Assembly (NCBI GenBank): GCA_041618295.1
Contig: JBFJNH010000011.1
Coordinates: 2,317 to 66,316, forward strand
DNA length: 64,000 nucleotides
Reading direction: 5' to 3'
DNA from: Marmoricola sp.
GTDB lineage: Bacteria; Actinomycetota; Actinomycetes; Propionibacteriales; Nocardioidaceae
Positions 5,652 to 56,500 of the stretch are shown here, one piece after another; position 1 is the first letter of the stretch, and every line of letters starts with the position of its first letter. A model generated the notes under the pieces. It made no database searches, was not told where the DNA came from, and worked only from the letters and a program-made list of their open reading frames with translations. A program made the position numbers and the translations under genes.

Positions 5652-6029
5652 TCAGCCAGCCGGTGGCGGGGAGGAGAACGGGTTCGGCGCCTTCTGCCGC
5701 TTCTGCCGGTTGTTGTAGTCCCGCATCCGCTGCGGGATGCCGACCACGGCCGCGTCGTACGACGGGATCCCGAGCTTGTTGGCGAAGTCGTGCGCCCACT
5801 GGACCGACTGCACCCGGCGCCGGGTCCACTCACCGTCGTGGGCGACCAGGAGCAGGGTCACCTCGCTGACCGTCGTCCGCGGTTCCACGAACCCCTCGAC
5901 GCCGCGACGGCTCGAGATCCACTCCTTGAGGTGACGGACGTCGGCCGAATCCGCGGCGCGCACGGTCGATCCGGTGGGTCCGCCACGGGTCATGCCTTCG
6001 CGGCGGCGGAATCGATCGAACAGGCCCAT
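5652..6029 (-). CDS. Conserved actinobacterial hypothetical protein
   Basis: EGFVEPRTTV..LLVAHDGEWTRRRV..YDAAVVGIPQRMRDYN; ATG at 6029 preceded by CACAAT-N7. Confidence 0.75.
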   Translation of the reverse strand: MGLFDRFRRREGMTRGGPTGSTVRAADSADVRHLKEWISSRRGVEGFVEPRTTVSEVTLLLVAHDGEWTRRRVQSVQWAHDFANKLGIPSYDAAVVGIPQRMRDYNNRQKRQKAPNPFSSPPPAG

Positions 6030-7582: not shown

Positions 7583-9349
7583 ATGTCGACTCCCGTCACC
7601 CTTCCCGCGCTCGGCGAATCCGTCACCGAGGGAACTGTCACGCGCTGGCTCAAGCAGGTCGGCGACACGGTGACGGTCGACGAGCCGCTGCTCGAGGTCT
7701 CCACCGACAAGGTCGACACCGAGATCCCCTCGCCGGTCGCCGGGGTGATCCTGTCGATCGACGCCGCTGAGGACGAGACCGTGGAGGTCGGCGCCCAGCT
7801 CTGCGTCATCGGCGACGCCGGCGAAGCCGGTGGCAGCGCCCCGGCGCCCGCCGCTGCCGAAGCCCCCGCCGCCCCGGCCGAGCCCGCCGCTCCCGCCGAA
7901 GCCCCCGCGGAGCCCGCCGCCCCGGCTGCCCCCGAACCGGTTGCCGCTGCAGAACCGGCCGCTCCGGCGCCGGCTGCCGCGTCCGCTGACGCGGGCACGT
8001 CGGTCACTCTTCCCGCGCTCGGCGAATCCGTGACCGAGGGGACCGTCACCCGCTGGCTCAAGCAGGTCGGCGATGCCGTCGCCGTCGACGAGCCGCTGCT
8101 CGAGGTCTCCACCGACAAGGTCGACACCGAGATCCCCTCGCCGGTCGCCGGGACGCTGCTCGCGATCCGGGTGAACGAGGACGAGACGGTGGAGGTCGGC
8201 GCCGAACTGGCCGTGATCGGAGCGGCCGGTGCTGCTCCGGCGCCCGCGGCCCCGGCGGAGCCTGCTCCGGCCGCACCGGTCGCGGAGGCTCCCGCGCCTG
8301 CAGCCCCGGCGGCTGCGCCGGCTGCTCCCCCGGCTGCTCCCCCGGCCGCTCCGGCCGCTCCGGCTGCTGCCCCGGCCCCACCGGTGGCCCCGCCCGCTGC
8401 TCCTGCCCCGGCGCCCGCTGCCCCCGCCGGCGACGGCGGCGGGAACTACGTCACTCCGCTGGTCCGCAAGATGGCCGCCGAGCACGGCGTCGACCTCGCC
8501 TCGGTCACCGGCACCGGGGTCGGCGGCCGGATCCGCAAGCAGGACGTCCTGGCTGCTGCGGAGGCCAAGAGGTCCGCTGCCCCCGCGGCAGCACCGGCGG
8601 CCTCAACCCCGGCCGCGGCCCCGTCGGCACCCAGCCCGCTGCGCGGGACCACCGAGAGCATCAGCCGACTCCGCCGAGTGATCGCGGAGCGGATGACTGA
8701 GTCGCTGCACATCTCGGCCCAGCTGACCCAGGTGATGGAGGTCGACGTCACCAACGTCGCGCGCCTCCGCGAGTCCGCCAAGGCCGACTTCCTGGCACGC
8801 GAGGGCGTGAAGCTCACCTACCTGCCCTTCTTCGCGAAGGCGGCGATCGATGCACTCAAGTCGCACCCGAAGCTGAACGCCCACCTGAACCTCGAGGCGG
8901 GCGAGATCACCTACTTCGACCGCGAGAACGTCGCGTTCGCCGTGGACACCGAGCGAGGCCTGCTCACCCCGGTGGTCAAGGACGCCGGCGACCTGTCGAT
9001 CGCCGGACTCGCCAAGAAGATCGCCGACCTCGCCGAGCGGACCCGGACCAACAAGATCACCCCGGACGACCTGACCGGCGGCACCTTCACGATCACCAAC
9101 CTGGGCAGCTTCGGGGCCCTCTTCGACACCCCCATCATCAACCAGCCGCAGGTGGCGATCCTCGGTCCCGGCGCCGTGGTGAAGCGGCCCGTGGTGATCG
9201 ACGACCCCAACCTCGGCGAGACGATCGCGGTCCGGCACATGGTCAACCTGGCGCTGACCTACGACCACCGCCTGGTCGACGGCGCCGACGCCGGCCGCTT
9301 CCTCCAGGACGTGAAGGCGCGACTGGAAGCCGCTCAGTTCGAGGTCTGA
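7583..9349 (+). CDS. sucB: 2-oxoacid dehydrogenase E2 with two lipoyl domains
   Basis: Two near-identical lipoyl domains ([14 protein letters not shown]), Pro/Ala linkers, E3-binding [13 protein letters not shown], catalytic YDHRLVDG. Confidence 0.95.
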
Positions 9350-39314: not shown

Positions 39315-40880
39315 GTGTCCGACAACCGCCCCCGCCGCACCTTCGCCGTCATCAGCCACCCCGACGCTGGCAAGTCCACGCTCACCGAGGCGCTGGCGCT
39401 GCACGCCCGGGTGATCACCGAGGCGGGCGCCGTCCACGGCAAGGGCGACCGCCGGGCCACCGTGTCGGACTGGATGGCGATGGAGAAGGCCCGCGGCATC
39501 TCGATCACCTCGGCGGCGCTGCAGTTCACCTACCGCGACCACGTGGTGAACCTGGTCGACACCCCCGGTCACAGCGACTTCTCCGAGGACACCTACCGGG
39601 TGCTCTCCGCGGTCGACTCGGCCGTGATGCTGGTCGACGCCGGTAAGGGCCTGGAGCCGCAGACCCTGAAGCTCTTCCGGGTCTGCGCTCTGCGCGGGAT
39701 CCCGGTGATCACAGTGATCAACAAGTGGGACCGGCCCGGTCTCTCGCCGCTGGCCCTGATGGACGAGATCGAGCAGCAGATCAAGCTGCGGCCCACGCCG
39801 CTGACCTGGCCCGTCGGTGAGGCCGGCGACTTCCGCGGGGTGCTGGACCGCCGTACGGGCGAGTTCGTGAAGTACACCCGGACCGCGGGCGGCGCCACCC
39901 GGGCCCCCGAGCGCCGGATGACGGCCGCCGAGGTCGAGGAGGTCGATGCCGCGGTCTGGGCCGACGCCCTGGACGAGCACGAGCTGCTGTCCCTCGACGA
40001 TGCCGACCACGACCAGGCACGGTTCCTCGCGGGCGAGACCACCCCGGTCATGTTCGCCTCGGCGCTGCAGAACTTCGGCGTCGCCCAGCTGCTCGACCTG
40101 CTGCTGGAGCTGGCCCCCGGCCCGAGCGCGACCGCGGGGGTCGACGGCTCGCTCCGCGAGGTCGACGACGCGTTCAGCGCGTTCGTGTTCAAGGTCCAGT
40201 CCGGGATGAACAGCTCCCACCGCGACCGGCTCGCGTACGCCCGGGTGGTCTCGGGCACCTTCGAGCGCGGGATGGTGGTGACGCACGCGTCGACCGGGCG
40301 GCCGTTCGCGACCAAGTTCGCCCAGTCGATGTTCGGTCGCGAGACCACCTCGGTCGAGGTCGCCTCGCCGGGCGACATCATCGGTCTCGTCAACGCCCAG
40401 GCCCTTCGCGTCGGCGACACGATCTACGAGGGCGACCGGATCGACTACCCGCCGGTGCCGAGCTTCGCGCCCGAGCACTTCATGACCGCCAGCGCGAAGG
40501 ACATCGGGCGGTTCAAGCAGTTCCGCAAGGGCATCGAGCAGCTCGACCAGGAGGGCGTCGTCCAGGTGCTGCGGTCCGACCTGCGCGGCGACCAGAGCCC
40601 CGTCCTCGCCGCGGTCGGTCCGCTGCAGTTCGAGGTGGTCGAGGAGCGGATGGCCAACGAGTTCAACTCCCCCATCCGTCTCTCCCGGCTCGACTACGGG
40701 GTGGCGCGCCGTACCGACGCCGCCGGCGCCCAGGTACTGAGCGGGGTCCGTGGCGCCGAGGTGCTGCAACGCACCGACGGGACCTACCTGGCCCTGTTCA
40801 TCGACAAGTGGCGGGCCAACAACGCCGCCCGGGAGAACCCGGACGTCCTGCTCGAGGAGCTCCCTGCCGGCGGGAGCTGA
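39315..40880 (+). CDS. prfC: Peptide chain release factor 3
   Basis: ISHPDAGKSTLTE, SDWMAMEKARGISI, DTPGHSDFSEDTYR, NKWD, GPLQFEV. Confidence 0.95.
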   Translation: MSDNRPRRTFAVISHPDAGKSTLTEALALHARVITEAGAVHGKGDRRATVSDWMAMEKARGISITSAALQFTYRDHVVNLVDTPGHSDFSEDTYRVLSAVDSAVMLVDAGKGLEPQTLKLFRVCALRGIPVITVINKWDRPGLSPLALMDEIEQQIKLRPTPLTWPVGEAGDFRGVLDRRTGEFVKYTRTAGGATRAPERRMTAAEVEEVDAAVWADALDEHELLSLDDADHDQARFLAGETTPVMFASALQNFGVAQLLDLLLELAPGPSATAGVDGSLREVDDAFSAFVFKVQSGMNSSHRDRLAYARVVSGTFERGMVVTHASTGRPFATKFAQSMFGRETTSVEVASPGDIIGLVNAQALRVGDTIYEGDRIDYPPVPSFAPEHFMTASAKDIGRFKQFRKGIEQLDQEGVVQVLRSDLRGDQSPVLAAVGPLQFEVVEERMANEFNSPIRLSRLDYGVARRTDAAGAQVLSGVRGAEVLQRTDGTYLALFIDKWRANNAARENPDVLLEELPAGGS

Positions 40881-41020: not shown

Positions 41021-42415
41021 ATGAGCCAAGCAGATGTTCCCGCACACGAGCACCGGCTCTTCGGGCTGCGCTTCCAGCGACGCGAGACCGAGCTGCGGTA
41101 CCGGCGCTGGCGGGTCGACACCGCGATCCCCTTCGCGCGGATCGGGTACGTCGGCTCGATCCCGAGCTGGATGATGGTGCTGGTCGCGGTGCTGGTTCTG
41201 GAACCGGCCGCCGCCGACGGCGCGGCCGGCTGGATCATCGGGTGGATCGTGCTGCTCCTGGTCCTGACGGCGCTCACCGTCCCGGCAGCGCTCCGCCTGG
41301 CGGTGACGCCCCTGGCCGCCCTCGCCAACTGCGTCGCCGGGTTCCTGATCGTCCACCTGCTCGCCGACCTGCTCCTCACCGGCGAGCTGAGCCAGTCGCG
41401 GGCCGGGGTGATGACGGCCGGTCTGATCGTGGTGATGTTCTTCGGCTTCGCGGTCTTCCGCATTCCGCCCGGGATCGCGACGCTCGCCGCGACGCCGTAC
41501 ACCGTCTTCGGCACCTCTCAGCTCGTCGAGGCCTACCGCGCCGGTGAGCTCAACGCAGTCGAGACCGGGTCGCTGGGAGCGGCGCAGTGGATCGCGTTCC
41601 TGGGCTGCCTGCTGGTCTGCACCGTGATCGAGATCGTGGACCGGCGTGCTTTCGTCAAGGACCAGATCATCGACGAGCAGCAGGCCGAGCTGCGCAACAG
41701 CCGCGAGACGATCCGTCGCTACGTTCCCCGCCCCGTCTTCGAGCACATCGTGCACGGCGACATCGACGGGATCGACGCACCGACGCGCCGCCGGGTCACC
41801 GTCCTGTTCGCCGATCTCGTCGGGTTCACCGACCTGGCCGACCGGGTCGACCCCGAGGTGCTGACGCAGGTGGTCAACGACTACATGACCGCGATGAGCC
41901 AGCTCGTCGACGACCACGGCGGGATCGTGAACGAGTTCGCCGGGGACGGGTTGATGGCGCTCTTCGGCGCCCCTGACGAGATGGACGCCGACGAGCAGGC
42001 GGTCAACGCTGTGCGGGCAGCCCAGGCGATGCAGGCGCGGCTCCCGTCCCTCGACCTCTTCTGGCACCGGCTCGGCGTCACTGAGTCGATGCAGACGCGG
42101 ATCGGGATCGACGCCGGCATCCTGAGTGTGGGCAGCTTTGGTTCCGAGGGTCGGATGACCTACACGGCGATCGGGATGCACACCAACATCGCCGCCCGGC
42201 TCCAGGCCCACTGCGAACCCGGTCAGATCCTGATCAGCGACTCGGTCCGGTACCTGGTGAAGGACCGGATCGAGTGCGAGCCCCGTGGCGAGGTGCAGTG
42301 CAAGGGCGTCCACTACCCCGTCCGGGTCCACACCCCGACGAACAAAGCCCCGGCGTCAGGGCGGCCGGTCGTCGCCAACCACGCGAACGGCCACCTCCCG
42401 GCCGCTCAGGGGTGA
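41021..42415 (+). CDS. Membrane-bound class III nucleotidyl cyclase
   Basis: Several TM helices; LFADLVGFT, NEFAGDGLM, YTAIG..TNIAARL. Confidence 0.88.
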   Translation: MSQADVPAHEHRLFGLRFQRRETELRYRRWRVDTAIPFARIGYVGSIPSWMMVLVAVLVLEPAAADGAAGWIIGWIVLLLVLTALTVPAALRLAVTPLAALANCVAGFLIVHLLADLLLTGELSQSRAGVMTAGLIVVMFFGFAVFRIPPGIATLAATPYTVFGTSQLVEAYRAGELNAVETGSLGAAQWIAFLGCLLVCTVIEIVDRRAFVKDQIIDEQQAELRNSRETIRRYVPRPVFEHIVHGDIDGIDAPTRRRVTVLFADLVGFTDLADRVDPEVLTQVVNDYMTAMSQLVDDHGGIVNEFAGDGLMALFGAPDEMDADEQAVNAVRAAQAMQARLPSLDLFWHRLGVTESMQTRIGIDAGILSVGSFGSEGRMTYTAIGMHTNIAARLQAHCEPGQILISDSVRYLVKDRIECEPRGEVQCKGVHYPVRVHTPTNKAPASGRPVVANHANGHLPAAQG

Positions 42416-42443: not shown

Positions 42444-42923
42444 TCAGTCCCGGCGCCCCTTCAGCCGCCGACTGACCGCGCGCTCGGCTTCCCGGGCCGC
42501 TTCCCGCTCGGCGAGGGTGTTCCGTTTGTCCCAGGTCTTCTTGCCGCGTGCCAGCGCGATCTCGACCTTCGCCCGTCCGTCCTTGAAGTAGAGCGTCACC
42601 GGCACGATCGTCAGACCGCTCTCCTTCACCTTCCGCTCGATCTTGTCGATCTGCGCGCGGTGCAGCAGCAACTTCCGCTTGCGGCGCGACCCCTCGTTCA
42701 CCCACCGGGACTGGGCGTACTGCGGGATGTGGACGCCGTGCAGCCAGATCTCCTGGTTCTCGACGTCGGCGAAACCCCCGACCAGCGACGCCCGGCCGGC
42801 GCGGAGCGCCTTCACCTCGTCGCCCAGCAGGACGATGCCCGCCTCCCACGACTCACCGAGGTGGTAGTCGTGCGCAGCCTTGCGGTTCCGCGCGATCACC
42901 GGGTCGGTCGACGGCTTCTTCAC
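42444..42923 (-). CDS. smpB: SsrA-binding protein (divergent, atypical context)
   Basis: [37 protein letters not shown]. Confidence 0.92.
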
Positions 42924-42966
42924 CCCGGCATCCTCCCAGGAGCCGGGCCGAACCCGCTGACCCGGC

Positions 42967-43149
42967 TCAGGCTGCCTTCGGGGTCCCCGTGGAGCGCGGC
43001 GTATCGGCGGAGTGCTCGATGCTGCGGTGCACCAGGGCGATGAAGGAGACCAGCAGCGAGACCACGACCACGATGATCGCGGTCAGGATCAGGACCCAGG
43101 TCAACGGGCTCATCGTGTCGGAGTAGACGCTGGCGTCGGTCGGGTTCAT
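42967..43149 (-). CDS. Small single-TM hypothetical protein (60 aa)
   Basis: GAGGGAG RBS, ATG at 43149, hydrophobic [23 protein letters not shown]. Confidence 0.55.
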
Positions 43150-43211
43150 CAGGACTCCCTCTCGTGCGGATCTTCTTCCCCCAGGCTGGCGCGACCACGG
43201 CGTACGGCGCA

Positions 43212-43298
43212 GGGGCGGAGGTCCCCGGGGTGCGGGCCCTTGGACCCGATCCAGCCCGGCCCGGGGCCAAAGACCCGGAAGAACCGGACCACCAGCCC
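43212..43298. promoter_or_regulatory. Four DosR-like boxes in a divergent promoter
   Basis: GGGGCGGAGGTCCC 43212, GGGCCCTTGGACCC 43234, GGGGCCAAAGACCC 43263, CGGACCACCAGCCC 43285. Confidence 0.6.
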
Positions 43299-43334
43299 TG
43301 AGGCGCCACGTCCTCACCGGCCAGGATGGAGCCC

Positions 43335-43919
43335 ATGGAACGGAACCGAATCGTCCAGGACCGCGCGCGCCCGACCGCGGCCCTCCCCCTTGTTCTCGCC
43401 CTCCTGCTGGCTCTCGCCGCAGCCTGCGGGAACGACCAGGACGGTGCTGCCCGCACCGAACCTGACGGGGTGACCACCTACGAGGTCGACGCGGGCATCC
43501 ACGTCACCACGCCGGTCGACTACCCGCAGACACCGCCGGTCGGCGGCGAGCACAACCCGGTCTGGCTGAACTGCGGGATCTACGACTCCCCGGTGCCGAA
43601 CGAGAACGTCGTGCACTCGCTGGAGCACGGTGCGGTCTGGGTCAGCTACGCCACCGACCTCGCCGACACCGAGGTGGCCAAGCTCCGGGCGTTGATGCCG
43701 TCGACGTACGGGATCCTCTCCCCGATGGCCGGACTCCCCGCCCCGGTCGTCGCGACCGCCTGGGGCAAGCAGCTCCTGCTGGACGACGCCGACGACCCCC
43801 GCCTGAAGCAGTTCATCGCGGTGTTCGCCAACAGCCCGCAGGCGCCTGAGGCCGGGGCCTCGTGCACCGGCGGCTCCGACGGGACCCTCCCCCTCGACGT
43901 CGCGGAGCTGATGGAATGA
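43335..43919 (+). CDS. DUF3105-type lipoprotein
   Basis: PPVGGEHNPVWLNCGIY, VHSLEHGAVW, ATAWG, PEAGASC; alternative ATG at 43326. Confidence 0.85.
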   Translation: MERNRIVQDRARPTAALPLVLALLLALAAACGNDQDGAARTEPDGVTTYEVDAGIHVTTPVDYPQTPPVGGEHNPVWLNCGIYDSPVPNENVVHSLEHGAVWVSYATDLADTEVAKLRALMPSTYGILSPMAGLPAPVVATAWGKQLLLDDADDPRLKQFIAVFANSPQAPEAGASCTGGSDGTLPLDVAELME

Positions 43920-46296: not shown

Positions 46297-46887
46297 TCAC
46301 CGCAGGAGGGGAACCCTTGCGACCAGGTCGGATGCTGCCCACTGCTTGCCGAATCCCCAGACCGAGCCTGCGTTGGCGAGGGTCAGGGCGACCAGGCTGA
46401 TCGCACCGAGAATGTGGTCGTCGAGCACCGGGTTGTTGTCCGGCGGCAGTACGACGGTCCACATCATCAGGTAGAGAAGTGCTCCACCCATCCCGGCGAG
46501 GCGCATGCCGATGCCGAAGGTGAAGGCGACGCCGATCCCGAGCAGAGCGATCATGAACGCCCAGTCAGCCCAGGCATCGCCGGCGATCGAGTGGTAGAAG
46601 CTGTCGAACGGACCGTCGGCACCGAAGGTCAGGAAGCCCTTGGTCGGACTTCCGCCGTTGATCCAGGCGGCATCCCCGAACCGGTCGACCACGCCGGCCT
46701 GGTCCCGGCCGGTCGCGAACCCGAGCGCGAGGAGCTTGTCGAAGAACGCCCACAGAAAGGTGAGCCCGAAGCCGATCCGGAGCGCAGCGAGCGCCTTCGC
46801 CGCAACGCCCGGGATGCTCACGGGCTCGTCGTGCGTCGACCGCCACGACTCGGGGCGGTGCAAACGGTGTTCGTGTGTGGTGGTCAT
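46297..46887 (-). CDS. DoxX/DoxD-like membrane protein
   Basis: LRIGFGLTFLWAFFDKL, WINGGSPTKGFL, NPVLDDH; AAGGAGG RBS. Confidence 0.85.
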   Translation of the reverse strand: MTTTHEHRLHRPESWRSTHDEPVSIPGVAAKALAALRIGFGLTFLWAFFDKLLALGFATGRDQAGVVDRFGDAAWINGGSPTKGFLTFGADGPFDSFYHSIAGDAWADWAFMIALLGIGVAFTFGIGMRLAGMGGALLYLMMWTVVLPPDNNPVLDDHILGAISLVALTLANAGSVWGFGKQWAASDLVARVPLLR

Positions 46888-48098: not shown

Positions 48099-49823
48099 TC
48101 ACGGGACCGGCGCCACCCAGAGCAGCACGGTGCCGCTGCCGTCGCGTGCCGAGGCCACGGTGAACGACCCCTGCCGCCGAGCGGCGCGGACGGCGAGGTT
48201 GTCGAGCCCGCTGCGCCGGTCGGAGTCCCCGAGCCCGCGACCGTTGTCGGCGATCCGCAGCTCGATGCGTTCGGTCGACGCCGTCAGTGCGACGACGACC
48301 TCGTCGGCACCGGAGTGCCGGGCGACGTTCGTGAGTGCCTCGCGCAGCACCGCGACCAGGTCTTCGCTCAGCCCGTGGTCGACGACCGTGTCGACCGGAC
48401 CTGCGAACCTGACCTCCGGTTCGACGGTCAGTACCCCTTCCAGGCTGGCAACGACGTCGAGGACGGCCGCGCGCAACCCCGGTCCCTGGGGGCCGGTGCT
48501 GTCGCGGAGCTCGAAGATCGAGTTCCGGATCTGACGGATCGCGACGTCGAGGTCCCCCACGACCTGCTCGACGCGGTCGGCGCTGCCGCGGTCCGACATC
48601 CCGGCGGCGATGCTCTGGAGCGTGAGACCTGAGGCGAAGAGCTGTTGGATGACGTGGTCGTGGAGATCGCGGGCGATCCGGTCGCGATCCTCGAAGAGCC
48701 GCATCCGCTCCTTGGCGCGCTGAGCCTCCGAGAGCTCCAGCGCCACCGCCGCCTGGTTGGCGAACGAGGTGGCCATCTCCAAGTCGGCGGTGCTGAACCG
48801 CGGACCGTTCCCGAGGCGACCCACGACCAGCGCACCGGTTGCCGCCTCCCGCCCGGTCAGCGGCAGCACCATCGCCGGTCCGATCGGCAGCAGCGTGCGT
48901 AGGTACAGCGAACGTTCCGGCTGGTCCGCGGGACCGGTGACCAGGGCCGGCGACCCGGTCCGGAGCACCATCTCGGTCAGGGTTCCGGCCATCGGATAGC
49001 TCTGGCCCTCGAAGGTGTCCGCCTCCATGCCGACAGCGACCGCGATGGACAGGTGCTGCCCGCCACCGGCCGGCAGCACCAGCGTGACCACGTCGGCCCG
49101 AGCCAACCGGTGAACCTGCTCGGCGATGCTGCGCAGCGCCTCGACGCCCGGCGCGTTGACCATCCGTACCGCGGCCTCGGCGGCACCCGCCGACCACTCC
49201 TGGCGACGCTCGGCGTCCTCGTAGAGCCTGGCGTTCTCGATCGCCACGGCGGCGGTCGCCGCCAAGGCTGAGGCGAGCTCCACGTCGGAATCGGTGAAGT
49301 CACCGGTACGACGTTCGGTCAGGTACAGGTTGCCGAAGACCTCACCACGGATCGTGATCGGCACGCCGAGGAAGGTGCTCATCGGCGGGTGACCCGCCGG
49401 GAATCCCACCGAGCGCCGGTCGTCACCGAGGTCGTGGAGCCGGATCGGCACCGGATCCTCGATCAAGGCACCCAGGACCCCCTTGCCCTGCGGAAGGTCC
49501 CCGATCCGGTCGACGGTCTCCTGGTCGATCCCGACGTGGATGAACCGCTCCAAGCCGTGGCCGTCCGAGCTGAGCACCCCCAGCGCGCCGTAGCGCGCCT
49601 CCAGGAGCTCGCACGCGGCTTCCGCGATCCGCTGGAGCACGACGTCGAGGTCGAGGTTGGAGATGATGCTCTCGTTCGCTTTGAGCAGTCCGCGCAGGCG
49701 CTGGTGGGCGCTGCGGACGTCCTGCGCCCGGTCCACCAGCTGCGCGAGCAGCTGGTCGAGGTCCAGGGTGGGCGCGAACCCGTCGCCCAACCGGTCTGCG
49801 TCACCGACGCCCGATCCCTCCAT
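48099..49823 (-). CDS. DosS/DevS-like tandem-GAF sensor kinase (HisKA_3)
   Basis: [48 protein letters not shown]. Confidence 0.9.
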   Translation of the reverse strand: MEGSGVGDADRLGDGFAPTLDLDQLLAQLVDRAQDVRSAHQRLRGLLKANESIISNLDLDVVLQRIAEAACELLEARYGALGVLSSDGHGLERFIHVGIDQETVDRIGDLPQGKGVLGALIEDPVPIRLHDLGDDRRSVGFPAGHPPMSTFLGVPITIRGEVFGNLYLTERRTGDFTDSDVELASALAATAAVAIENARLYEDAERRQEWSAGAAEAAVRMVNAPGVEALRSIAEQVHRLARADVVTLVLPAGGGQHLSIAVAVGMEADTFEGQSYPMAGTLTEMVLRTGSPALVTGPADQPERSLYLRTLLPIGPAMVLPLTGREAATGALVVGRLGNGPRFSTADLEMATSFANQAAVALELSEAQRAKERMRLFEDRDRIARDLHDHVIQQLFASGLTLQSIAAGMSDRGSADRVEQVVGDLDVAIRQIRNSIFELRDSTGPQGPGLRAAVLDVVASLEGVLTVEPEVRFAGPVDTVVDHGLSEDLVAVLREALTNVARHSGADEVVVALTASTERIELRIADNGRGLGDSDRRSGLDNLAVRAARRQGSFTVASARDGSGTVLLWVAPVP

Positions 49824-49887
49824 GATCGTCAGGGTAGCGACTCACCCGCGCGTGCGCCGGACGAAGGGGGAAACGGGACGAAGTGGC

Positions 49888-50505
49888 TCAGTCCAGCCGT
49901 TCCCCCGAGCGCCGGGTCTGTGCCGGGAAGTAGACCCCGACCACCCCGGGGACGCTCGCGACGAGCACCTCCGCAACCGCGATGTCGCTGCGCTCAGCAG
50001 GGCCGGAGACGCTCACCACCCCGTCCACGACCTCGGTCGTCCAGTCGTAGCCGGCAGACCTGATCAGCTCATCCACAGCCGCCTCGATGTCACCGTCCCG
50101 CTCGGCAAGAACATGGACCAGGTCGCGACGACTGACCATCCCGACGACGCGGCTTCCCGAGACGACCGGAAGGCTCTTCGCGACCGTACTCACCATCAGC
50201 TCGGTGGCCTCGGCCAGGTCAGCATCCTCGCGGATGGTGAGGACGTGACGACTCATCACCTGCGCGACCCGGGACCGCGGCGGCCCGGCACTGACCTGGA
50301 CCGGGATCTCGTGGGCACGCTGGTCGGGGAGGAACGCCTCGAGAAGGACGTCCGCCTCGCTCACCACGCCGACCAGCTCGCCAGCGTCGTCGAGGACCGG
50401 CATCGAGGTGATCGCGTGCTGCGCGAGCAGCTCGACCGCACTCTTGATCGAGGTCTCCGGTGTGACCGTGACCACCGGGGTCGTCATCACCTCGCGTACC
50501 AGCAT
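49888..50505 (-). CDS. CBS-domain protein (possible C-terminal BON-like segment)
   Basis: VREVMTTPVVTV, MPVLDDAGELVGVVSEADVL, VGMVSRRDL. Confidence 0.87.
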   Translation of the reverse strand: MLVREVMTTPVVTVTPETSIKSAVELLAQHAITSMPVLDDAGELVGVVSEADVLLEAFLPDQRAHEIPVQVSAGPPRSRVAQVMSRHVLTIREDADLAEATELMVSTVAKSLPVVSGSRVVGMVSRRDLVHVLAERDGDIEAAVDELIRSAGYDWTTEVVDGVVSVSGPAERSDIAVAEVLVASVPGVVGVYFPAQTRRSGERLD

Positions 50506-50775
50506 GGTTCCTCCTCGGAGTCGTCGCGCACCTGCCGCGATCTCGGTAGGTCCAGTCTCGGATCGATGCACGGCGGCCGGCACCGCCGAAGGTCCCAGGA
50601 ATCGGCCCCATCGGACCTGATCCGCCGCGGGTTCACCGCGGACACGCCCGCCACGACGCCCCGACCGATGCCCCGACCGATGCCCGTGTGGACCCCGATC
50701 TCGGGACCAAGGACTCCTGATCCGCACCCGGCTCCGGAGCGAGGATCAGAGCATGACCAAGCAAGGAGGTGTGTC

Positions 50776-52862
<2,087 letters not shown>

Positions 52863-52868
52863 GACCCC

Positions 52869-53519
52869 TCAGCCCTTGTCGAGCAACCGCGAGGCGAGGA
52901 CCGCTGCCTGGGTGCGCCGTTCGACCCCGAGCTTGGACAGGACGTTGGACACGTAGTTCTTGACGGTCTTCTCGGCGAGGTACATCCGTTCGCCGATCTG
53001 GCGGTTGGTCAGACCCTCGGCGATGAACCCCAGCAGCTGGAGCTCCTGCTCGGTCAGCTCCGCAAGCTCCGGCGCCGTGGTGACCGGGTTGCGGACCCGG
53101 TCCAGCACCCGGGCGGTGAGGGCCGGGTCGATCAACGACTGACCCGCGGCGACCTGGCGGACCGCGGAGAGCAGCCCCGAGCTCCGGACCTCCTTGAGCA
53201 CGTAGCCGGCGGCACCGGCCATGATCGCGGAGAAGAGTGCCTCGTCGTCGTCGTACGAGGTCAGGATCAGCGCGTTGATCGTCGGGTCGACCGAGCGGAT
53301 CGTGCGGCACACGTCGATCCCGGAGCCGTCCGGCAGCCGGGCGTCGAGGATCGCCACGTCGGGACGCAGCGCCGGGATCCGGTTGGCCGCGTCGACGGCG
53401 GAGCCGGATTCACCGATGACCTCGATGTCGCCGGCCGCCTCGAGGAACGTCCGGATCCCTTGCCGGACGATCTCGTGGTCGTCGAGCAGGTAGACGCGTA
53501 TTTTCTTCGCTTCATCCAT
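52869..53519 (-). CDS. dosR: DosR/DevR-like LuxR-family response regulator
   Basis: LLDDHEIVRQG, LDARLPDGSG, LTSYDDDEAL, EKTVKNYVSNVLSKLGVERRTQAAV. Confidence 0.85.
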   Translation of the reverse strand: MDEAKKIRVYLLDDHEIVRQGIRTFLEAAGDIEVIGESGSAVDAANRIPALRPDVAILDARLPDGSGIDVCRTIRSVDPTINALILTSYDDDEALFSAIMAGAAGYVLKEVRSSGLLSAVRQVAAGQSLIDPALTARVLDRVRNPVTTAPELAELTEQELQLLGFIAEGLTNRQIGERMYLAEKTVKNYVSNVLSKLGVERRTQAAVLASRLLDKG

Positions 53520-56500
53520 GCTCACACTGTGCCAGGTCGGACCGAGCAGGGGCAGGACATCGGCCCAGGTCGAGGACCCGGTCGACCCGGTCCAGGCCCA
53601 CCGCGCTGTGCGAGATCCAGACCACGCTCCGGCCACGGGACGCCGAGAGCAGATCAGCGGCGACCCGATCCGCGGTCACCGTGTCCAGCTGGGCCACCGG
53701 TTCGTCGAGCACCAGGACCGGCTGGTCGGCGAGGATCGACCGTGCCAGACCCAGTCGGGACCGCTCGCCACCGGAGACCAGGTCGTGGCCGTCACCGATC
53801 CAGGTGTCCAGGGCGTCGGGCAACCCGTCGAGCCAGTCCCCGAGGTGGACCGCCCGGAGCGCGGCCTCGACCTCGGTGTCCGAGGCCTCCGGCCGGGCGA
53901 GGCGGACGTTCTCCACCAGAGTCGTGGCGAAGATGTGCGGGTCGTCCGAGACGTAGCCGACCTGTCCCCGGACGTCGTCGAGGAGCAGTGCGGGCAGCGC
54001 CTCCGAGCCGAGGCTGACCTGGCCGGAGACCGGGTCGACGAAACGGATCAGGGTCGCCGCGAGGGTGCTCTTGCCGCACCCGCTCGGCCCGACCACCCCG
54101 AGGGTCTCCCCCTCGGCAAGACGCAGGTCCAGGCCGCTGAGGACCGGACGTCCGTCCCACCCCAACGCGGCGCCGAGCAGCTCGACGTCGTGGGAGCCTG
54201 CCAGCGGCAACGGGGCTACCGGGTCCTGGACGGCTGGCGCCATCGTGTCGAACGCGGCCAACCTCTCCTCGGCGGCCTCGACCCGCTCGACAAGGGCGGC
54301 CGCCTCCACCACGCCGAGTCCCAGGTCGGCGAGGGCGACCGGGGTCAGCAGCAGCAGCGCGAGCATCGGCGCCGACAGGGTGCCGGCTTCGAGCGGACCC
54401 GCGCCGACGGCCGCAACGGCGCCCACCCCGGCAACGGCACCGACCCGGACGCAGGCCCGTGCCGCCGCTGTCATCGACGCCGCCCGACGCCCCGCCTGGG
54501 CGAGGGTGCTGCTGACGGCGTCCAGAGCGCCACGCACAGAGCCGTGCGCCTGCCACATCCGGAGCTCGTCGGCCCGCGCGGCCAGATCGAGCATCAGCGC
54601 CGAGAGCTCGCCCCGGGACGCGACCAGGGCTCGTTCGGGGGCCCGGGTTCCCAACCGGGCGACGAGGTACGCCGTCCCGACCGCGAGCACCGACGTCGCC
54701 GCGATCGCGGCCCCCGCGGCGGGAAGGACGATGGCGGCGACGAGCGCCACCAGGAGGGAGACGGCCGCGAAGGTCCGCAACGGAAGCCGGACCCGCAGCT
54801 CGCGGTCGGTGGCCGCGTCCACGTCGTCGACGACGGACGCCAGGACGTCTCCGCGGTGCCGCCCGAGCCGACCGGGCGTCAGCGGCACCAGGCTGCGGTA
54901 CACCGCGACCCGACGTTCGGCCAGGCCGCGCAGGGCGTTGTCGTGCGAGACCAGCCGCTCGGCGTACCGGAAGACCGGACGACCGAGGCCGAACGCCCTG
55001 ACCCCGACGATCGCGACCAGCAGCGTCAACGTCGCGGGCTGCTCCGCGGCCTTGACGATCAGCCAGCCGGCGGTTGCCGTCAGAGCCACCCCGCAGAACG
55101 CTGAGCAGATTCCCAGGACCGTGCTCAGTACGAACCGCGGCGGTGCCACGGGCGCCGGCGGCGAGTTCTCCGGAGCGGCCGCCGCACCGGCACCACCAGG
55201 TCCGGCGACCGGCGCGGACGCCGCGGGGTCAGCCGCGACGAGCGTCGGTGTCGCCGGGGGCGCCAGTTCCAGCACCCGGTCGGCGAGCGCGACGACCTCC
55301 GCGTCGTGGCTGACGACGACCACGCCGGCATCAACCGCCAGCGCGGCGATGACGTCGCCGATGATCCTCCGGGTGATCGGGTCCAGGTGCGCCGTCGGCT
55401 CGTCGAGCAGGACCCACGGGCGGCCGGCCAGGACCGCTCGCGCGAGCGCGAGGCGCGCCCGCTCCCCCGCGGACAGCAGCGCAGCGTCCTCGGTGACCTC
55501 GACGTCCAGACCGCCGAACGAACCGATCCGCTCAGCCAGGGCGACCGTCGTCAGCGCGTCCCAGAGGGCCTCGTCACTCGCCCCCGGGTCGGCGAGCCGC
55601 AGGTTGTCGGCCACGGTGCCGGGCACGAAGGTCGGTCGCTGCGGCACCCACGAGACCTGGGAACGCCATGCGTCGCCAGCAGCCGGGACCCCTCCGGAAC
55701 CGACGCTGCCGCTCGTCGGCTCGAGCAGACCGGCGAGCAGCGCCAGCAGCGTCGACTTGCCGCACCCGGACGGCCCGGTGACGACGGTCAGCGATCCGGG
55801 CGCCGCTGCGAAGCTGATCGGCCCGACCGCGGCCTGCGCGCGACCCGGGTAGGTGAAGGAGACCTCGTCGGCGATCACGAGTCGGTGCGAGGCTGGCCCC
55901 TCCGGGTCCACGGCCTCGGACCGCGGGCCGATCGCACTCAGGGCCTCGAAGGTGGCGATCCCCTCCGCGGAGGCGTGGAACTCGGCACCCACCCGGCGCA
56001 GCGGCCAGTACGCCTCGGGCGCGAGCAGCAGCACCACCAGGCCGGTTCCCAGGTCGAGGTTTCCCGCGGCGAGCCGGACTCCGATGACGACAGCGACCAG
56101 GGCCACCGACAGGGTCGCGACCAGCTCGAGGACTGCCGACGACGCGAAGGCCACCCGCAGCGTCCGGACCGTTGCCGCGCGGTAGCGGTCCGTGACCCGG
56201 CGGATGTTCGCCTCCTGGGCGACAGCACGGCGGAAGGCCACCAGCGTCGGCAGCCCCCGGAGGACGTCGACGAAGTGCCCGGACAGGGACGCCATGGCGC
56301 GCCACTGCTCGAGCGCACGGTCCCGGGTGGCCAGTCCGACCAGGGCGCCGAAGACAGGGATCAAGGGCAGGGTTGCCAGCACCAGGAACGCACTGAGCAG
56401 GTCCTGGCTGGCAATGGCCAGGACGGTCAGTACCGGCAGAACACCGGCCAGGACCAGCGCCGGCACGTACCGGGTGAGGTACGGCTCGGCTGCCGAGACA

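Follow-up and report, generated by a model that had tools for sequence, protein, structure and literature searches.

The 64,000-nt stretch of the soil actinobacterium Marmoricola sp. (Nocardioidaceae) analysed here (the window; contig JBFJNH010000011.1, which is contig C11 of the 3.67-Mb genome) carries a second gene for SmpB, the protein partner of transfer-messenger RNA (tmRNA) in trans-translation. This gene, designated smpB2, probably encodes a functional SmpB belonging to a paralog lineage that was passed horizontally to Kribbella and that is carried as a self-contained, leaderless cassette. The initial annotation of the window had recognised a clear SmpB with an intact DKR tail, had considered that it might be a second copy, and had proposed a role in ribosome rescue under hypoxia; the identification as SmpB and the status as second copy are both upheld by the evidence below, and the hypoxic role is not established.

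At the level of the protein, SmpB2 is a genuine, intact full-length SmpB. It matches Pfam PF01668 at 190.6 bits (cut-off 27), over profile positions 1-142 of 143, and its tail reads GKKTWDKR. The closest solved structure is Mycobacterium smegmatis SmpB (5zey_C of PDB 5ZEY; E 5e-50), and the AlphaFold2 model (pLDDT 82.7) displays the SmpB beta-barrel followed by a long C-terminal helix. Consistently, the best 21 matches of this model in a Foldseek search against the PDB are all SmpB, with core TM values of 0.87-0.89 and root-mean-square deviations of 1.5-2.5 A.

Two SmpB matches occur in the genome, both intact and 62% identical to each other. The canonical copy (SmpB1) is encoded on contig C1, downstream of ftsE, ftsX and an M23 peptidase gene, and the only ssrA of the genome (C1:109547-109918, 170.6 bits, ARAGORN tag ANTNRNSFALAA) is located 4 kb beyond it, so that the window copy is not the sole smpB. 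The actinobacterial ftsE-ftsX-(M23)-smpB-ssrA synteny, which is typical of the SmpB family and not defining for it, is thus present at the C1 copy and absent from the window copy. ARAGORN and Rfam detected neither a tRNA nor a tmRNA nor any further Rfam family in the window, where ftsX and M23 genes are likewise missing and ftsE matches are confined to generic ABC ATPases of 25-32% identity, in line with the absence of tmRNA and ftsE/ftsX first read from the sequence. Seven other two-SmpB genomes contain one tmRNA each; since every two-SmpB genome checked has a single tmRNA, both SmpBs must share it. A dedicated second tmRNA for SmpB2 was rejected on the same counts, none being found in the genome of the window or in the seven others, and the extra Rfam tmRNA matches are 76-nt, tRNA-like and below the cut-off. 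On C1, a trypsin-like protease gene, an SDR gene and other open reading frames (ORFs) occupy the interval between canonical smpB and ssrA, which measures 4 kb in the Marmoricola sp. genome versus ~1.2 kb in Kribbella.

Evidence for a distinct lineage comes from a maximum-likelihood tree of 104 SmpBs, in which the 20 second copies included form one clade, SmpB2 (bootstrap/SH-aLRT 100/100, stem 0.22), with the window copy inside it. This clade is nested among the canonical Nocardioidaceae SmpBs, and its deep branches come from the window's own genus. Second copies from Kribbella are nested within it beside the window copy, in a subclade of 12 supported at 100/99. A tree constrained to unite the second copies of Kribbella with the canonical SmpB of that genus was rejected (log-likelihood difference 80, approximately unbiased test p-AU 0.0015), and a comparison of Marmoricola sp. 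with a Kribbella genome shows SmpB2 to be 89% identical whereas SmpB1 is only 67% identical. On the strength of the rejected constraint and of this difference in identity, we conclude that smpB2, having arisen in the Nocardioidaceae from canonical smpB, came to the Kribbella ancestor by a horizontal route.

The distribution of the paralog, surveyed at a threshold of at least 80% identity, is both narrow and uneven. SmpB2-type genes occur in 91 of ~98 sampled Kribbella genomes, most of the exceptions being incomplete assemblies, and are patchy in the window's genus, where roughly 40% of the genomes carry one; none was found in ~290 other genomes of the order or, outside this order, in 369 genomes of the same class. 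Rough pairwise ratios of nonsynonymous to synonymous substitution (dN/dS) of ~0.1-0.25, with a median of 0.12, resemble those of canonical SmpB and point to purifying selection. Carriage of smpB2 by phages or plasmids was also considered and discarded, given that phage and plasmid collections yielded no matches at or above 70% identity and that the weaker matches in them resemble ordinary smpB in large, chromosome-scale or host-derived records. Additionally, a separate second smpB was encountered in another actinobacterial genus (g150, genomes of 6.6-7 Mb), in 4/4 genomes sampled (Table 1). These copies are sister to their own canonical SmpB on a long stem (0.46), which argues for an independent origin; they retain GTEVKSL, do not carry the SmpB2 signature and lie outside the ftsEX context.

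Conservation of functional residues further supports an active protein. Escherichia coli residues E31, L91 and K124, which according to the mutagenesis literature are needed for tmRNA binding, and Y24 and A130, likewise needed for frame choice, are all invariant in an alignment of E. coli, SmpB2 and canonical sequences. With these presumed tmRNA-binding and decoding-centre residues kept, SmpB2 looks competent, and the tail residues G132, K133, K134 and D137-K138-R139 (E. coli numbering) are conserved as well. Roles have been described for the residues of the SmpB tail, in which the position stacking on G530 is His136 in E. coli and Tyr in Thermus (PMC3895274, PMC8363625); His or Tyr is usual at position 136, Phe is inactive in E. 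coli, and Trp was not among the residues tried (PMC3895274). Trp occupies this position in 19/20 SmpB2 proteins and also in 15 of the 90 canonical actinobacterial SmpBs that served as the substitution reference, and was therefore rejected as a marker of the clade.

Against this conserved background, SmpB2 carries a set of substitutions of its own. The unusual GDEVKAL and a second odd segment, singled out in the initial annotation, correspond in the window protein to T35D, S39A, E68Q, G72S, T73R, T75V and H77E, all at positions 93-100% conserved in the reference. Clade-wide changes, at positions 90-100% conserved in canonical SmpB, comprise Q12R (20/20), S39A (18/20), E68Q (18/20) and G72A/S; position T35 is variable within the clade (Asp in the window), the N-terminus is rebuilt, and the subclade of the window additionally shows R17A, D49G, T73R, T75V/F and H77x. 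In the AlphaFold2 model, the SmpB2-specific changes map to helix 1, the EVKSL helix and the strand-loop region 68-82, and the last of these may be a contact to the tRNA-like domain of tmRNA.

Upstream of the gene, the initial annotation had pointed to a possible -10 element of its own (GAGGAT-N6-GTG) that might uncouple smpB2 from its neighbour. This element is present at 42935-42921, within a putative extended -10 that reads TGgGAGGAT and ends 6 nt before the GTG, and its geometry is shared with canonical genes to an extent that bears the caveat out. The arrangement TGn-nAnnnT-N5-8-start precedes 43/46 canonical Nocardioidaceae smpB genes versus 0.4% of the background and is also seen at the canonical smpB of Marmoricola sp.; the looser ANNNT-N6/7-start precedes 19/20 smpB2 and 45/46 canonical Nocardioidaceae smpB genes versus 8% of the background. 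Among the canonical promoters, TG, A2 and T6 are fixed and the other hexamer positions vary (e.g., ACACAAT, which is not Shine-Dalgarno-like); the Kribbella smpB2 -10, CAGAAT, is not Shine-Dalgarno-like either. On a longer transcript that reads through from upstream, the GGAGG inside TGgGAGGAT could double as a Shine-Dalgarno site. Because the -10 located 6 nt before the GTG is the only conserved upstream sequence, leaderless transcription from an own promoter is most likely, and we infer that smpB2 inherited an extended -10, leaderless promoter from canonical smpB. The extended -10 of canonical Nocardioidaceae smpB (L009 6945-6967 and loci L047-L114) suggests that this gene, too, is served by an internal promoter and a leaderless mRNA of its own, despite lying within the ftsE-ftsX-M23-smpB cluster.

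Comparison with close relatives, found via contigs encoding the small ORF upstream of smpB2 (L153 and L157), delimits the unit that appears to be mobile. In both relatives, smpB2 is divergent from a sulP/STAS transporter gene, which lies on the opposite strand between the small ORF and smpB2, and must therefore have its own promoter there. Homology between L153 and the window is unbroken from 46977 to 42998, after which only the smpB2 cassette is shared, with 19 nt of sequence before the GTG and 4 nt after the stop; smpB2 thus seems, as we infer, to travel as a self-contained cassette of ~0.5 kb carrying the ancestral smpB promoter. The 43-nt adjacency seen in the window is, to judge from this alignment, the product of a ~1.9-kb deletion that removed sulP and shortened the tail of the small ORF. 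A conserved smpB2 gene neighbourhood was also sought, and none exists across the 20 loci.

The proposed mechanism follows from these features. SmpB2 would bind the one tmRNA of the cell at its tRNA-like domain and, like canonical SmpB, would enter stalled ribosomes at their empty A site. Its mRNA, most likely leaderless to judge from upstream conservation, would be transcribed from its own promoter, which would uncouple this supply of SmpB from the ftsE-ftsX-M23-smpB cell-division cluster; hypoxic read-through from the promoter of the small gene, with its DosR-like boxes, could add expression in Marmoricola sp., as a local and unproven contribution.

The setting that gave rise to the hypoxia proposal is itself real. 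The small co-oriented gene upstream, which ends 43 nt before the GTG, is supported by its codon composition, an independent assembly call and homologs (Table 1); the 8 homologs share a conserved N-terminal and transmembrane region followed by a variable tail, with an Ala-Ala end in most. Its N-terminal family motif begins M(N/D)Px, with members at L153 4001-4267, L155 4001-4252 and L156 4001-4234; in L156, the convergent neighbour of the homolog encodes a short S30AE (hibernation-factor-type) protein. The DosR-like boxes reported before the small gene are present as exact GGGNCNNNNGNCCC matches at 43212, 43234 and 43263, and among 235 matches of this pattern in 3.67 Mb this is the sole site with at least two within 35 bp. 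The triple box precedes the small ORF by 70-120 nt and smpB2 by 290-350 nt, and the 43-nt gap between the two genes contains no such box. Its 29/22-nt spacing is kept in L153, where GAGCCT stands at the same offset as the candidate -10 CAGCCT of the window, and boxes also precede the small-ORF homologs in L156 and L157. Given the unique triple box, the conserved spacing and the CAGCCT near the proximal box, the small ORF and the divergent DUF3105 gene that shares the box region are good candidates for a DosR-type regulon. Further along the window, a hypoxia-type island, at whose border smpB2 is situated, contains DosS/DosT-like kinases and a NarL-type response regulator (52869-53636), continues to 62302 with cydAB and three USP genes, and also holds ABC (cydDC-like) genes, a pyridoxamine-oxidase-family gene and a CBS-BON gene. 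A 196-aa protein encoded in the island (46297-46887, minus strand) has no Pfam match even at E 1 and is conserved in L127 and L153.

Whether smpB2 belongs to this regulon is a different matter. An operon of the small ORF and smpB2, driven by the DosR-box promoter as part of a DosR-type regulon, would make SmpB2 a rescue factor specific to hypoxia or dormancy, and several features favour it: the unique triple box before the small ORF, conserved in L153 and echoed by boxes before the L156 homolog; the same-strand position of smpB2 only 43 nt behind, with GGAGG at Shine-Dalgarno distance; the nearby island with DosS/T/R-like genes, cydAB and USP genes; and the location of smpB2 within 2 kb of a box-bearing promoter in three related genomes. 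Moreover, L157 has an exact box GGGTCTATGGTCCC (5926-5939) 58 nt upstream of the smpB2 start, with 0.008 expected by chance, and L153 a one-mismatch box (5999-6012) 60 nt upstream. However, these single boxes sit in the divergent sulP-smpB2 intergenic region, a stretch lost from the window, and could equally serve sulP, whose opposite orientation in L153 and L157 leaves no operon there; the boxes of the window front the small gene and the DUF3105 gene. DosR-like boxes were rejected as a trait of smpB2 orthologs, since no cluster of boxes lies within 500 nt of smpB2 at the 19 other loci, and neither dos genes nor the small gene occur near them. The gene also retains the housekeeping-type extended -10 of canonical smpB. 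The hairpin upstream of smpB2, present as the initial annotation had described, cuts both ways: it has no T-run, was not called by the terminator scan and lies in a junction unique to the lineage of the window, but its GC-rich stem may reduce read-through. Taken together, the hypoxia link is local and unproven and is not a family trait, and a hypoxia-specific operon appears unlikely as the explanation of SmpB2. Synteny with congeners by way of DUF3105 was of no use here, as a homolog is encoded in only 5/61 genomes and does not exceed 55% identity. A broader proposal, namely that SmpB2 is functionally specialised through retuned tmRNA or decoding-centre engagement and was recruited to a DosR-type dormancy regulon in this species group, is speculative and on balance quite improbable; if true, SmpB2 would be retuned for non-growing cells or hibernating ribosomes, or would evade the factors by which canonical SmpB is titrated or inhibited, and the result would be a system of 'two SmpBs, one tmRNA' with divided labour.

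Two further explanations concern why a second copy is kept at all. A redundant duplicate with no distinct role, maintained by chance or dosage, would agree with the retention of all known functional residues, the promoter type shared with canonical smpB, the single tmRNA partner, the lack of a conserved neighbourhood and the loss of smpB2 in many members of the genus to which the window belongs; it is nevertheless very unlikely in view of the near-complete retention in Kribbella under low dN/dS, the conservation within the clade of its specific changes, Q12R and S39A among them, and fixation after transfer into a genus already holding smpB. A protective variant, insensitive to an inhibitor of trans-translation such as a natural product or a phage tRNA-like-domain decoy, is more remote still and highly improbable. 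We know of no natural product targeting SmpB, which counts against it. Biosynthetic or phage genes were not seen beside smpB2 in the loci scanned, where no systematic cluster search was made, and the phage and plasmid collections contain no SmpB2-like gene; in its favour, a housekeeping gene that has been duplicated and passed on horizontally in soil actinomycetes parallels 'resistant target' genes, and some phages carry a tmRNA or a gene for the tRNA-like domain only that may titrate SmpB (PMC4131195). Several points weigh against the preferred reading of SmpB2 as a functional, leaderless second SmpB under selection: dS is probably saturated or biased at a third-codon-position GC content (GC3) of ~0.93, which leaves the dN/dS figures rough; changes at invariant positions could make the activity of SmpB2 differ from that of canonical SmpB; and GGGAGGAT is also a perfect Shine-Dalgarno sequence, so that the leaderless interpretation leans on orthologs such as the Kribbella CAGAAT. 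A functional second SmpB with its own promoter remains the likely explanation.

Table 1. Coordinates of smpB2, of neighbouring features in the window and of features at related loci.
Feature	Position	Strand	Remarks
smpB2, second SmpB, 159 aa, GTG start	42444..42923	-	Pfam PF01668; AlphaFold2 fold; clade support 100/100
TGgGAGGAT, putative extended -10, 6 nt before GTG	42930..42938	-	Comparison with orthologs
GC-rich hairpin, 8-bp core stem, no T-run after it	42940..42968	-	Fold -37.4 kcal/mol, z -2.67
Gene for 60-aa single-pass membrane protein (small ORF)	42967..43149	-	GC3 0.95; gene call in Logan contig L127; 8 homologs
Candidate -10 CAGCCT of small-ORF promoter	43183..43188	-	30.5 nt from proximal box centre; read from sequence
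Three exact DosR-like boxes and a weak fourth	43212-25, 43234-47, 43263-76; 43285-98		Divergent promoter region
DUF3105 gene, divergent from small ORF, common box region	43326..43919	+	Pfam PF11303, 151.8 bits; same arrangement in L153, L157
Core of hypoxia-type island: two GAF-GAF-HisKA_3 kinases (DosS/DosT-like), NarL-type response regulator (DosR-like)	48099..53636		Pfam
Terminator-like hairpin with T-run	42337..42362	-	Terminator scan; ~80 nt past smpB2 stop, within 3' end of convergent cyclase gene
Second smpB copies of genus g150	L146, L147, L148, L150 (versus L141-L144)		Genomes G623, G667, G724, G774
SRPBCC genes in basal smpB2 loci	L024 7483-7980, L023 8500-8976, L030 8567-9112, L035 6596-7078

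The surroundings of smpB2 at individual loci offer several side observations. In the window, prfC (release factor RF3; 39315-40880) lies 1.5 kb from smpB2 with only a class III cyclase gene between them; a functional link was dropped, as this proximity is not conserved in L153 or L157 and is probably coincidence. In four basal smpB2 loci, an SRPBCC (polyketide-cyclase/START-like) gene is found upstream on the same strand, immediately so in three (Table 1), and G6PD and/or GH15 genes are nearby in three basal loci. In E. coli, smpB has as its divergent neighbour ratA, which encodes an SRPBCC ribosome-association toxin; the two SRPBCC proteins align only weakly (29% over 63 aa). Four Kribbella smpB2 loci lie just downstream of tRNA-Arg(CCT) (L028 7901-7975, L045 5889-5963, L046 5376-5450, L044 4447-4521), and in one Kribbella genome tRNA-Arg(TCT) is upstream (L029 8617-8693). 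Behind these tRNA genes, smpB2 opens a variable segment bounded by conserved sequence on either side. The arrangement resembles an insertion hot spot, and no integrase was seen in the flanks scanned. In two congeners, tandem repeats occur just upstream of smpB2, namely in L035 (~7820-7960; 22-nt unit ccggccccgcatgcccaaccgc, ~5 times) and in L037 (~7900-8040; ~50-nt unit).

The wider value of SmpB2 lies in what such a variant can reveal. It offers a naturally occurring test of which parts of the SmpB surface tolerate change while function is retained, and raises the question of whether bacteria tune trans-translation by swapping its protein partner. Furthermore, natural SmpB variants may inform inhibitor specificity, since mycobacterial trans-translation serves as a target for antibiotics (PMC12071686).

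Compared with canonical SmpB (M. smegmatis 5ZEY, E. coli b2620), SmpB2 is alike in length, fold, full-length hidden Markov model match, key residues and basic C-terminal helix, and its extended -10 and start-codon geometry are those of canonical Nocardioidaceae smpB. It differs in being a second copy away from ftsE-ftsX-M23/ssrA, in forming a separate clade with no conserved neighbours, in Q12R, S39A, E68Q, G72A/S and the rebuilt N-terminus, and in its apparent horizontal transfer between families. Stress-specific translation paralogs are familiar in actinobacteria, examples being the alternative ribosomal proteins that do not depend on zinc and the S30AE-type hibernation factor that DosR regulates in mycobacteria. 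SmpB2 resembles them as a second translation-associated copy, situated beside a stress regulon in Marmoricola sp., but has a housekeeping-type promoter and no family-wide regulator site. Like ArfA, ArfB, BrfA and ArfT, SmpB2 would supplement the rescue provided by tmRNA and canonical SmpB; whereas those factors are unrelated and tmRNA-independent, SmpB2 is a true SmpB and should need tmRNA. The g150 duplication is similar in providing a stable second smpB outside ftsEX and distinct in its separate origin and its retained GTEVKSL, and the 'SmpB-like' domains of CoCoNuT restriction systems were set aside as a different thing, not SmpB paralogs. No description of a chromosomal SmpB paralog was found in the literature searched, which treats smpB as single-copy, and the only additional copies noted in a 2014 smpB census are those on one plasmid (PMC4131195). 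What appears to be new, therefore, is a stable, selected and transferred second SmpB that combines signature substitutions with a single common tmRNA and is free of fixed neighbours.

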